A DNA stretch of 64,000 nt from Escherichia coli (GTDB lineage: Bacteria > Pseudomonadota > Gammaproteobacteria > Enterobacterales > Enterobacteriaceae): NCBI RefSeq assembly GCF_009931435.1, contig NZ_CP043414.1, one strand, 5' to 3'. A program made the position numbers and the translations under genes. The notes under the pieces were generated by a model. That model was not told the DNA's origin, did no database searches, and was given only the letters and a program-made list of their open reading frames with translations. Shown piece after piece: positions 3,222-7,573 of this stretch (positions are counted from its first letter, which is position 1; each line of letters opens with the position of its first letter).

Positions 3222-4106
3222 ATGAAGCCTTTTTTGCGCTGGTGTTTCGTTGCGACAGCACTTACGCTTGCAGGATGCAGTAATACTTCCTGGCGTAAAA
3301 GTGAAGTCCTCGCGGTACCATTGCAACCGACTTTACAGCAGGAAGTGATTCTGGCACGTATGGAACAAATCCTTGCCAGTCGGGCTTTAACCGATGACGA
3401 ACGCGCACAGCTTTTATATGAGCGCGGAGTGTTGTATGATAGTCTCGGTCTGAGGGCATTAGCGCGTAACGATTTTTCGCAAGCGCTGGCAATCCGACCG
3501 GATATGCCGGAAGTATTCAATTACTTAGGCATATATTTAACGCAGGCAGGCAATTTTGATGCTGCCTATGAAGCGTTTGATTCTGTACTTGAGCTTGATC
3601 CAACTTACAACTACGCGCACTTGAATCGCGGGATCGCATTATATTACGGCGGTCGTGACAAGTTAGCGCAAGATGATCTGCTGGCGTTTTATCAAGACGA
3701 TCCCAATGATCCTTTCCGTAGTCTGTGGCTTTATCTCGCCGAGCAGAAGCTCGATGAGAAGCAGGCTAAAGAAGTGTTAAAACAGCACTTCGAAAAATCG
3801 GATAAGGAACAGTGGGGATGGAACATTGTCGAGTTCTACCTGGGCAACATTAGCGAACAAACGTTAATGGAAAGGCTCAAGGCGGACGCAACGGATAACA
3901 CCTCGCTCGCTGAGCATCTCAGTGAAACCAACTTCTATTTAGGTAAGTACTACCTAAGTCTGGGGGATTTGGACAGCGCCACGGCACTGTTCAAACTGGC
4001 GGTTGCCAACAACGTTCATAACTTTGTTGAGCACCGATACGCATTGTTGGAATTATCGCTCCTGGGCCAGGACCAAGATGACCTGGCAGAATCGGACCAG
4101 CAATAG
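3222..4106 (+). CDS. nlpI: TPR-repeat outer-membrane lipoprotein NlpI
   Basis: 294 aa; signal peptide with lipobox LTLAGC; TPR-like repeats; conserved pnp-nlpI-deaD order. Confidence 0.93.
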
Positions 4107-4285
4107 CTGACGTACACATCAGCCCGTAATCTTTTTTGATTGCCATCACCTTAACGGGTGAGGGCGTTGTTGTTCGTTAATACACCTACTTTGAGCCGGT
4201 TCACACTTTTCAATGAAAATTGCTGATCAATTTCATGATGAGTTATGTAGACTGGCCGCCATTAATTTTGAGGCACACGTACTAC

Positions 4286-6175
4286 ATGGCTGAATTCGAA
4301 ACCACTTTTGCAGATCTGGGCCTGAAGGCTCCTATCCTTGAAGCCCTTAACGATCTGGGTTACGAAAAACCATCTCCAATTCAGGCAGAGTGTATTCCAC
4401 ATCTGCTGAATGGCCGCGACGTTCTGGGTATGGCCCAGACGGGGAGCGGAAAAACGGCAGCATTCTCTTTACCTCTGCTGCAAAATCTTGATCCTGAGCT
4501 GAAAGCACCACAGATTCTGGTGCTGGCACCGACCCGCGAACTGGCGGTACAGGTTGCTGAGGCAATGACGGATTTCTCTAAACACATGCGCGGCGTAAAC
4601 GTGGTTGCCCTGTACGGCGGCCAGCGTTATGACGTGCAATTACGCGCCCTGCGTCAGGGGCCGCAGATCGTTGTCGGTACTCCAGGCCGTCTGCTGGACC
4701 ACCTGAAACGTGGCACTCTGGACCTCTCTAAACTGAGCGGTCTGGTTCTGGATGAAGCTGACGAAATGCTGCGCATGGGCTTCATCGAAGACGTTGAAAC
4801 CATTATGGCGCAGATCCCGGAAGGTCATCAGACCGCTCTGTTCTCTGCAACTATGCCGGAAGCGATTCGTCGCATTACCCGCCGCTTTATGAAAGAGCCG
4901 CAGGAAGTACGCATTCAGTCCAGCGTGACTACCCGTCCTGACATCAGCCAGAGCTACTGGACTGTGTGGGGGATGCGTAAAAACGAAGCGCTGGTACGTT
5001 TCCTGGAAGCGGAAGATTTTGATGCGGCGATTATCTTCGTTCGTACTAAAAACGCGACTTTGGAAGTGGCAGAAGCTCTTGAGCGTAACGGCTACAACAG
5101 CGCTGCACTGAACGGTGACATGAACCAGGCGCTGCGTGAGCAGACTCTGGAACGCCTGAAAGATGGTCGTCTGGATATCCTGATTGCGACCGACGTTGCG
5201 GCCCGTGGCCTGGACGTTGAGCGTATCAGCCTGGTAGTTAACTACGATATCCCGATGGATTCCGAGTCTTACGTTCACCGTATTGGTCGTACCGGCCGTG
5301 CGGGGCGTGCTGGTCGTGCGCTGCTGTTCGTTGAGAACCGCGAGCGTCGTCTGCTGCGCAACATTGAACGCACTATGAAGCTGACCATTCCGGAAGTAGA
5401 ACTGCCGAACGCAGAACTGCTGGGCAAACGCCGTCTGGAAAAATTCGCCGCTAAAGTACAGCAGCAGCTGGAAAGCAGCGATCTGGATCAATACCGTGCA
5501 CTGCTGAGCAAAATTCAGCCGACGGCGGAAGGTGAAGAGCTGGATCTCGAAACTCTGGCAGCCGCACTGCTGAAAATGGCACAGGGTGAACGTACTCTGA
5601 TTGTTCCGCCAGATGCGCCGATGCGCCCGAAACGTGAATTCCGCGACCGTGACGACCGTGGTCCGCGCGATCGTAACGACCGTGGCCCACGTGGCGACCG
5701 TGAAGATCGTCCGCGTCGTGAACGTCGTGATGTTGGCGATATGCAGCTGTACCGTATTGAAGTGGGCCGCGATGATGGTGTTGAAGTTCGTCATATCGTT
5801 GGCGCGATTGCTAACGAAGGTGACATCAGCAGCCGTTACATCGGTAACATCAAGCTGTTTGCTTCTCACTCCACCATCGAACTGCCGAAAGGTATGCCGG
5901 GTGAAGTGCTGCAACACTTTACGCGTACTCGCATTCTCAACAAGCCGATGAACATGCAGTTGCTGGGCGATGCACAGCCGCATACTGGTGGTGAGCGTCG
6001 TGGTGGTGGTCGTGGTTTCGGTGGCGAACGTCGTGAAGGCGGTCGTAACTTCAGCGGTGAGCGCCGTGAAGGTGGTCGTGGTGATGGTCGTCGTTTTAGC
6101 GGCGAACGTCGTGAAGGCCGCGCACCGCGTCGTGATGACTCTACTGGTCGTCGTCGTTTCGGTGGTGATGCGTAA
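4286..6175 (+). CDS. deaD: cold-shock DEAD-box ATP-dependent RNA helicase DeaD/CsdA (629 aa)
   Basis: ORF 4220..6175; start set at [13 protein letters not shown]; motifs [12 protein letters not shown] (LVLDEADEM), [13 protein letters not shown]; Arg/Gly-rich C-terminal tail. Confidence 0.95.
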
Positions 6176-6200
6176 TCAACGCTGAACAGCGAACACAATC

Positions 6201-6280
6201 TGTAAAATAATATATACAGCCCCGATTTTAACCATCGGGGCTTTTTTTCTGTCTTTTGTACTCGTGTACTGGTACAGTGC
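6201..6280 (+). promoter_or_regulatory. mtr control region: TyrR-box-like TGTAAA-N6-TATACA and TrpR operator-like palindrome tgtactcgtgtactggtaca
   Basis: motifs read directly upstream of mtr; mtr is known to be TrpR-repressed and TyrR-activated. Confidence 0.55.
6218..6250 (+). terminator. deaD rho-independent terminator
   Basis: agccccgattttaaccatcggggct hairpin + T7 run after deaD stop. Confidence 0.8.
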
Positions 6281-6328
6281 AATGCATAACAACGCAGTCG
6301 CACTATTTTTCACTGGAGAGAAGCCCTC

Positions 6329-7573
6329 ATGGCAACACTAACCACCACCCAAACGTCACCGTCGCTGCTTGGCGGCGTGGTGATTATCGGCGGCACCATT
6401 ATTGGCGCAGGGATGTTTTCTCTGCCAGTGGTCATGTCCGGTGCGTGGTTCTTCTGGTCAATGGCGGCGCTGATCTTTACCTGGTTTTGTATGCTGCATT
6501 CCGGCTTGATGATTCTGGAAGCTAACCTGAATTATCGAATTGGCTCGAGCTTTGACACCATCACCAAAGACTTGCTGGGCAAAGGCTGGAACGTGGTCAA
6601 CGGCATTTCCATTGCCTTTGTGCTCTATATCCTGACCTATGCCTATATTTCTGCCAGCGGTTCGATTCTGCATCACACCTTCGCGGAGATGTCGCTGAAT
6701 GTTCCGGCACGAGCTGCAGGTTTTGGTTTTGCGCTACTGGTGGCGTTTGTGGTGTGGTTGAGCACCAAAGCCGTCAGCCGGATGACGGCGATTGTGCTTG
6801 GGGCGAAAGTTATTACCTTCTTCCTCACTTTCGGCAGTTTGCTGGGGCATGTGCAGCCTGCGACATTGTTTAACGTCGCGGAAAGCAATGCGTCTTATGC
6901 ACCGTATCTGTTGATGACCCTACCGTTCTGTCTGGCCTCATTTGGTTATCACGGTAACGTGCCGAGCCTGATGAAGTATTACGGCAAAGATCCGAAAACT
7001 ATCGTGAAATGCCTGGTCTACGGTACGCTGATGGCGCTGGCGCTGTATACCATCTGGTTGCTGGCGACGATGGGCAACATCCCTCGTCCGGAGTTTATCG
7101 GAATCGCCGAGAAGGGCGGTAATATTGATGTGCTGGTACAGGCATTAAGCGGTGTATTGAACAGCCGTAGCCTGGACCTTCTGCTGGTCGTGTTCTCAAA
7201 CTTTGCAGTGGCGAGTTCGTTCCTCGGCGTAACGCTGGGTTTGTTTGACTATCTGGCAGATCTGTTTGGTTTTGACGACTCTGCCCTGGGCCGCTTGAAA
7301 ACGGCACTGTTGACCTTTGCACCGCCTGTCGTGGGTGGCCTGCTGTTCCCGAACGGATTCCTGTACGCCATTGGTTATGCTGGCTTAGCGGCTACCATCT
7401 GGGCTGCAATTGTTCCGGCGCTGTTGGCCCGCGCATCGCGTAAACGCTTTGGCAGCCCGAAATTCCGTGTCTGGGGCGGCAAGCCGATGATTGCACTGAT
7501 TCTGGTGTTTGGTGTTGGCAACGCACTGGTGCATATTTTATCGAGCTTTAATTTGCTGCCGGTGTATCAGTAA
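6329..7573 (+). CDS. mtr: tryptophan-specific permease Mtr (aromatic amino acid/H+ symporter family)
   Basis: 414 aa polytopic membrane protein [33 protein letters not shown]... Confidence 0.93.

Follow-up and report, generated by a model that had tools for sequence, protein, structure and literature searches.

The window analysed here, a stretch of 64 000 nucleotides of Escherichia coli DNA (contig NZ_CP043414.1), contains the gene for the cold-shock DEAD-box RNA helicase, deaD (csdA), and the subject of this analysis is the Arg/Gly-rich repeat at the 3' end of that gene. The neighbours of deaD are nlpI (3222..4106), a yrbN open reading frame (ORF; 4213..4293) and mtr (6329..7573), that is, the nlpI-(yrbN)-deaD-mtr arrangement of E. 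coli, with the gene names taken from the RefSeq annotation of matching loci. The features of the locus are as follows.

4286..6175, + strand: deaD/csdA coding sequence, 629 amino acids plus the stop codon (from the ORF list, Pfam, the DEAD_ECOLI cluster and RefSeq)
5750..5959, + strand: folded DbpA-type RNA-binding domain, directly before the tail, amino acids 489–558 (PF03880, E=1.3e-20; the structure 5B88 covers amino acids 479–564)
5978..6172, + strand: Arg/Gly-rich C-terminal tail, predicted to be disordered, amino acids 565–629 (PF12343 covers amino acids 568–629)
5987..6019, + strand: repeat unit 1, 11 amino acids, 33 nt
6020..6052, + strand: repeat unit 2, 11 amino acids, 33 nt; it holds CGTGAAGGCGGT at 6032..6043, the 12-nt stretch that is doubled in the +12 allele
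6053..6097, + strand: repeat unit 3, 15 amino acids, 45 nt
6098..6160, + strand: repeat unit 4, degenerate, 21 amino acids, 63 nt, including the conserved APRRDD and RRRF
6161..6175, + strand: terminal GGDA and the TAA stop codon, with the final RRRFG(G)DA conserved across Enterobacterales
5995..6002, + strand: left copy of the GCGTCGTG microhomology, whose partner lies 132 nt further on, at 6127..6134; the pair flanks the -132 nt deletion
6005..6016, + strand: left copy of the GGTGGTCGTGGT direct repeat, whose partner lies 66 nt further on, at 6071..6082; the pair flanks the -66 nt deletion
6218..6250, + strand: intrinsic terminator of deaD (9-bp stem with six G-C pairs, followed by a T run)
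5970..6185, + strand: poly-Val ORF in the +1 frame, a listed ORF but an artefact that does not belong to the feature
5866..6303, - strand: antisense Pro/Arg/Ser-rich ORF, an artefact that shares its wobble positions with deaD

The identity of the gene, named as deaD in an earlier note on this DNA, is borne out by its Pfam domains, by cluster membership and by the RefSeq annotation. The helicase core (DEAD, 3.3e-52; Helicase_C, 2.5e-32) is followed by the DeaD dimerisation domain (DeaD_dimer, 8e-18), the DbpA-type RNA-binding domain (DbpA, 1.3e-20) and DeaD_C, which is the domain order of DeaD/CsdA. The protein is an exact sequence member of the DEAD_ECOLI cluster, and RefSeq attaches the label WP_001295553.1 to DNA identical to that of the window over the 291-nt tail segment that was compared. 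Three PDB chains described as ‘ATP-dependent RNA helicase DeaD' were matched over their full length: 5GJU (E=2.9e-130, residues 6–210), 5GI4 (E=2.7e-142, residues 218–445) and 5B88 (E=5.6e-51, residues 479–564). The alignment of 5B88, the only one shown of the three, is identical to the window protein except at the first aligned residue. For the DbpA-type domain, AlphaFold2 predicts a beta-alpha-beta-beta-alpha-beta, i.e. RRM-like, fold with pLDDT of 66–78. A search of positions 5700–6400 against Rfam, for an RNA element within or after the repeat, gave Trp_leader at 20.7 bits (threshold 41) and ClpQY_promoter at 17.2 bits (threshold 42); both matches are rejected because they are sub-threshold and overlap the terminator hairpin.

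The 65 residues of the tail comprise 20 Gly (31%), 19 Arg (29%), 11 Asp or Glu (17%) and 4 Phe, with a net charge of +8. Not one of them is Leu, Ile, Val, Met, Trp, Tyr or Cys, so that a hydrophobic core is impossible in this region. The segment from amino acid 568 to 629, at the very C-terminus, matches profile positions 1–62 of the 62 positions of the Pfam family PF12343 (DeaD_C, ‘DeaD helicase C-terminal disordered region') with a score of 45.6 bits against a gathering cut-off of 23.3. No PDB chain that includes residues 565–629 was found, and the PDB constructs end at residue 564. When the RNA-binding domain and the tail were modelled together with AlphaFold2 from an alignment of 32 sequences, the tail came out as coil with pLDDT of 41–50, low values that serve as a proxy for disorder only. 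The composition, the absence from the PDB and the AlphaFold2 model are thus proxies that agree with the Pfam description of the region as disordered. Judged by its profile match, the tail is already catalogued: it is a full member and, in effect, the type example of DeaD_C.

The repeat at the 3' end of deaD is confirmed. The translation of the tail, from the ORF that ends at 6175, is exactly as quoted in the earlier note, where the region was described as a periodic Arg/Gly array. Parsed by codon, it consists of four degenerate [G/S]GERR[E/G]GGRxF units, each ending in Phe, followed by GGDA. At the DNA level, a formal repeat finder recovers head-to-tail repeats of the slippage-prone kind (Tandem Repeats Finder: period 33 nt, 2.9 copies, 73% matches, score 115, at 5987..6082). 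The 24-mer singled out in the earlier note recurs at 5990, 6023 and 6056 with at most three mismatches, compared with 0.00 occurrences expected from 100 shuffles. A separate repeat search of the tail yielded families spaced 33, 45 and 78 nt apart, and a pair of 44-nt segments (5997–6040 and 6075–6118) that are 89% identical represents a higher-order repeat. The G-R-x-F-G/S-G repeat family extends to the very last codons of deaD. In the protein, self-identity is raised at a lag of 11 residues (z=3.5, p=0.0004; 0.012 after correction for 30 lags), and GERR occurs four times compared with 0.18 expected, a count reached by none of 20 000 composition-preserving shuffles. The strict 11-residue period, however, is limited to units 1–3, as counted by the first three GERR starts, with insertions in units 3 and 4.

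The repeat also varies in length among strains. The tail region was found in 5425 of the 5426 complete E. coli genomes surveyed; length alleles were identified by junction-specific searches and protein-cluster look-ups, and the counts are lower bounds that pertain to the known junctions only. Within this scope, in-frame gain or loss in the tail occurs in about 3% of the complete genomes, at the least, and the wild-type length is kept in about 97% of the 5426. Among the matches listed, the 38 with full coverage and at least 95% identity contain no indels, which provides a rough bound on further length variants.

Four length alleles were found, each of them in frame and flanked by repeats or microhomology, and all retain the terminal RRRFGGDA. 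The most common one, present in at least 158 of the 5426 genomes, is a +12 nt allele encoding 633 amino acids (WP_001306022.1); it is a duplication of CGTGAAGGYGGT that yields EGGR-EGGR and is consistent with one origin because three examples show no differences across 330 nt. In the -33 nt allele (618 amino acids), exactly one unit is gone. This allele is carried by one complete genome (K56-43-un) and three draft or read-assembly contigs; all are recombinants between units 2 and 3. As the contigs have three distinct DNA junctions, this loss is recurrent. The -66 nt allele (607 amino acids) has lost two units between the GGTGGTCGTGGT copies at 6005–6016 and 6071–6082, and its three carriers, 14EC047 and the O145:H28 outbreak pair RM12761/RM13516, represent two haplotypes with 5 differences over 330 sites. 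In another O145 strain, the span is that of the wild type. Finally, two genomes from one study carry a -132 nt deletion between the 8-nt GCGTCGTG copies at 5995–6002 and 6127–6134, which leaves 585 amino acids.

Three further hits from the junction searches were rejected. One of these has a deaD gene of wild-type length (1890 nt), and the other two, which are short partial matches, are read as wild-type alleles with a single-nucleotide polymorphism (SNP).

Units of the array are thus repeatedly gained and lost in frame within a single species, through short direct DNA repeats, by replication slippage or unequal recombination, and recurrence seems likely for at least the -33 and -66 nt events. 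The expectation of the earlier note that the repeat is prone to slippage and varies in length between strains holds for E. coli, as the comparison of deaD 3' ends shows, and the periodicity behind it has formal support.

Despite its low complexity and the tolerated loss of units, the amino acid sequence of the repeat is under purifying selection. Among five alleles of wild-type length, the tail has 18 polymorphic sites, 16 of which are synonymous in the deaD frame. Given that 27% of sites are expected to be synonymous, a ratio of 16:2 has a binomial probability of ~6e-8, and the amino acid sequence of the tail is therefore constrained. An enrichment of SNPs in the tail is ruled out, as the deaD gene of the window is diverged from other E. 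coli alleles by ~2.7% along its entire length; among the matches listed, only three genomes have a tail at least 99% identical to that of the window.

Across Enterobacterales, the tail ranges from 38 to 89 amino acids, and the number of its G[ED]RR units lies between one and five. The Klebsiella tail has one extra unit and a doubled APRRDD, and the Salmonella tail has the same number of units as that of E. coli. The best-conserved positions across genera are those around RAPRR[DE][DE] and the terminal RRR(FG)DA.

Several published observations bear on what such a tail might do. ATP-independent annealing by CsdA has been proposed to reside in the highly basic C-terminal domain (PMC3590231), and a secondary, non-specific RNA-binding site has been inferred for the protein (PMC1616957). 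Full-length CsdA aggregates in vitro; residues 1–443 are soluble and active as an ATPase (PMC3814787). According to PMC11850223, which cites Xu 2017, both ATP hydrolysis and RNA unwinding persist in a construct from which the C-terminal tail is missing; the core, the dimerisation domain and the RNA-binding domain are thus enough for these activities in vitro, and the tail is not catalytic. Purified DeaD undergoes liquid-liquid phase separation that depends on protein and salt concentration, and the protein forms foci in vivo (PMC12758526).

The reading that we favour, and consider probable as a whole, is that the repeat-built disordered tail acts as an RNA tether, an annealing surface and a valency array. 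Under this reading, the positively charged, disordered extension of 65 residues that follows the DbpA-type RNA-binding domain of the dimeric helicase would serve as a non-specific electrostatic tether for RNA as well as a surface for annealing, raising the local concentration of RNA for the helicase core and the RNA-binding domain. Arg and Phe residues could act as ‘stickers', spaced by Gly and tempered by Glu and Asp, and would make the dimer multivalent, which would account for the reported aggregation and for the phase separation that depends on salt. The number of repeats would then set the valency. Tail length might drift between species, and occasionally within E. coli, because in-frame changes would be tolerated. 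The tether, annealing and sticker roles are suggested by analogy with the tails of RhlB, Mss116 and CYT-19 and with the disordered regions of RhlE.

In the accessible literature, no experiment was found that isolates residues 565–629 and measures how they bind or anneal RNA or form condensates; the truncations of CsdA that have been published take out the whole 444–629 region. The Arg/Asp-rich linker at amino acids 447–482 could be an alternative source of the aggregation, annealing and phase separation. There are clinical isolates that lack 44 of the 65 tail residues, so that viability does not depend on the greater part of the array.

A different role for the tail, to which we give limited credence, is that of a carrier of protein-binding linear motifs, APRRDD and RRRFG(G)DA, with the GERR repeats being a flexible spacer only. 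The partner might be RNase E, poly(A) polymerase or a component of the ribosome, for instance; CsdA has been reported to bind the first two (PMC1616957). The distal motifs are the part of the tail that is best conserved across genera, and every one of the four E. coli length variants, even the one that is shorter by 44 amino acids, retains the terminal 13 residues. Against this role stands the purifying selection that is detected on the GERR units themselves, which are kept in sequence, and not in length alone, from Escherichia to Klebsiella and Salmonella. Furthermore, no partner mapped to the APRRDD or RRRFG(G)DA residues was found in the accessible literature.

The recurrent series of tail lengths (+4, 0, -11, -22 and -44 amino acids) might also be seen as a tuning knob for condensate valency or cold adaptation, a reading that we regard as doubtful. 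If it were true, some lineages, for example the 158 genomes with the EGGR duplication or the O145:H28 pair with 22 fewer amino acids, would differ measurably from others in RNA chaperoning, in the DeaD condensates linked to persistence, or in growth at low temperature.

It is improbable that the array is neutral low-complexity sequence, harmless to the protein and drifting in length by slippage. Isolates that lack 11, 22 or 44 amino acids are viable, the tails of relatives differ more than twofold in length (38–89 amino acids), and the tail-less construct is active in vitro, all of which is what neutrality would predict. Yet about 97% of the 5426 genomes have the same length in a sequence that is demonstrably prone to slippage, the 16:2 excess of synonymous over non-synonymous sites shows constraint, and conservation within the family is sufficient to build a Pfam model.

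The question whether the tail is an RGG domain, as the label ‘RGG-type' in the earlier note implied, can be approached through the Thandapani classes of RGG/RG motifs, in the form in which PMC9957100 quotes them. The tail contains no match to di-RGG or tri-RGG, i.e. RGG(X0-4)RGG optionally followed by (X0-4)RGG, its single RGG being at residue 572, and no match to tri-RG, RG(X0-4)RG(X0-4)RG. Only the weakest class, di-RG or RG(X0-4)RG, is represented, once, by RGGGRG at residues 572–577. The label is therefore right in a loose sense but fails for each of the three stricter classes. A canonical RGG box or GAR domain of the eukaryotic kind would have the high Gly and Arg content with interspersed Phe that is found here, as well as the location at the C-terminus of a DEAD-box protein. 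Besides the lack of the stricter motifs, however, the recurring motif is GERREGGR rather than RGG and the acidic fraction is substantial; no PRMT-type arginine methylation that could regulate such a box is known in E. coli. Such an identity is accordingly very unlikely, and the tail does not belong among the RGG boxes, although it plausibly works in an RGG/GAR-like manner.

The last alternative, that one of the overlapping ORFs (the poly-Val ORF on the + strand or 5866..6303 on the - strand) is a real gene and the repeat a case of dual coding, starts from the fact that both frames are open over the whole tail. CGT or GGT accounts for 33 of the 65 tail codons, and because of this monotony four of the six frames are free of stop codons across the tail. 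In the poly-Val frame, 16 of the 18 polymorphic sites are non-synonymous, including changes of V to E, V to G and L to P. In the antisense ORF, 15 of the 18 are synonymous, but this apparent synonymy arises because the wobble positions are common to deaD and the antisense frame. With the open frames so explained, the poly-Val product altered at nearly all variable sites, the antisense ORF acquiring a stop codon in strain LH50-c and running across the deaD terminator, neither product matching any Pfam family, and the database ‘proteins' in the Val frame being frameshifted fragments, dual coding is hardly conceivable, and the ORFs in other frames are artefacts of the repeat, as had been proposed from the start.

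Public databases contain four ‘proteins' that cross from DeaD into the Val frame; they are frameshifted fragments from short assemblies. The annotation of this region calls for caution, as such frameshifted readings into the poly-Val frame are already deposited.

Taken together, the feature is real, its interpretation in the earlier note is correct, and the tail is already known. The value for gene discovery is small: the region is a tail that Pfam already lists as disordered, in a helicase that has been studied in depth, and the odd overlapping ORFs can be dismissed. What is new is the within-species series of alleles and its recurrence, of which no description was found in the papers searched and which is a minor detail of population genetics. 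Because DeaD condensates have recently been linked to translation and antibiotic persistence, the natural alleles are ready-made reagents for studying the effect that the valency of a disordered region has on a bacterial helicase.

Among known systems, Hera of Thermus thermophilus and CshA share with DeaD the architecture of core, dimerisation and RNA-binding domains, in which the RRM is followed by a short C-terminal tail (PMC11850223); the alignment of their structures (PDB 5IVL and 4KBF) to DeaD is confined to the helicase core and the dimerisation region. The eukaryotic RGG/RG or GAR regions of fibrillarin, nucleolin, DDX4, LAF-1 and Ded1 resemble the DeaD tail in being disordered Arg/Gly regions with Phe on a protein that binds or remodels RNA, and by analogy the DeaD tail may likewise provide non-specific RNA binding and valency for phase separation. 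In contrast to these regions, it is rich in Glu and Asp, with mixed charge, and falls short of the stricter RGG definitions.

Closer in setting are the tails of RhlB, RhlE and SrmB and the C-tails of Mss116 and CYT-19, which are also unstructured, positively charged appendages that follow the helicase modules. Basic tails of this kind are reported to bind RNA non-specifically, to be required for the RNA-stimulated ATP turnover of RhlB, or to determine how RhlE phase-separates (PMC3814787; PMC11260450). The DeaD tail differs from them in that it has no sequence homology to any of these tails, follows folded dimerisation and RNA-binding domains, and is built of clear 11-residue repeats.

The closest counterpart is PF12343 itself: the deaD tail matches its entire profile and, as in the other members, comes after the DbpA domain. 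Salmonella, Klebsiella, Enterobacter and other relatives likewise have GERREGGR units and end in RRRFG(G)DA. There is no substantive difference between this tail and the family, of which it is the type example because the protein is identical to DEAD_ECOLI: the number of units alone varies, between species and in rare alleles of E. coli.

The tail region of the deaD allele in the window has few close relatives within the species. When the 291-nt segment 5940..6230 was used to search 5,426 E. coli genomes, no more than 3 of these matched it with at least 99% identity, and most were about 97% identical. Strain 2020CK-00188 is 100% identical across the entire segment. Because such close matches are few and the divergence of this deaD from other alleles extends over the whole gene (about 2.7%), the window can be assigned to an uncommon lineage. 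In the same collection, one genome carries a second copy of the tail region, on a plasmid, query coverage fell below 80% in 3 further genomes, and the query found no match in 1 of the 5,426 genomes searched.

An in-frame tail deletion of 66 nt (22 amino acids) is common to the two O145:H28 genomes of the Belgian ice-cream outbreak, RM12761 (sequence L013) and RM13516; the O145 strain RM9872 has the wild-type tail span. The deletion allele could be used as a lineage marker.

Public protein collections also contain DeaD sequences with frameshifted or chimeric C-termini (database proteins P0073, P0075, P0085, P0044, P0006 and P0045). Some of these continue in the poly-Val frame, the +1 frame that overlaps the end of deaD, and in others, the GERR repeat of the tail is fused to the ERRD of the linker and the RNA-binding domain. 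Recombination inside the repeats, or else errors made in sequencing or assembly, probably gave rise to such termini.

At the other end of the gene, the start codon of deaD overlaps the 3' end of a small ORF by 8 nt:

4213..4293 (+), yrbN, a 26-codon small ORF, annotated by RefSeq in relatives and represented by a Pfam family of its own (PF28071)

A 651-aa ORF with a TTG start at 4220 is merely an in-frame upstream extension of deaD. Downstream, the Rfam model Trp_leader yields a sub-threshold match at 6157..6248 (+), with 20.7 bits against a gathering score of 41 bits (E=0.14). This match overlaps the deaD terminator, which shortly precedes mtr, the gene for the tryptophan permease, and is probably explained by the hairpin and the T run.

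The tail is not the only low-complexity stretch in DeaD:

5624..5731 (+), a low-complexity linker of 36 aa (DeaD aa 447-482), the second such stretch in the protein

This linker, with a mixed-charge Arg/Asp/Glu composition, separates the dimerisation domain from the RNA-binding domain, and is encoded by DNA containing near-repeats of 24-27 nt (TRF period 9; repeat family D3). In the interspecies DeaD alignment, the length of the linker differs among species, too, and functions ascribed to the tail could be common to both stretches.
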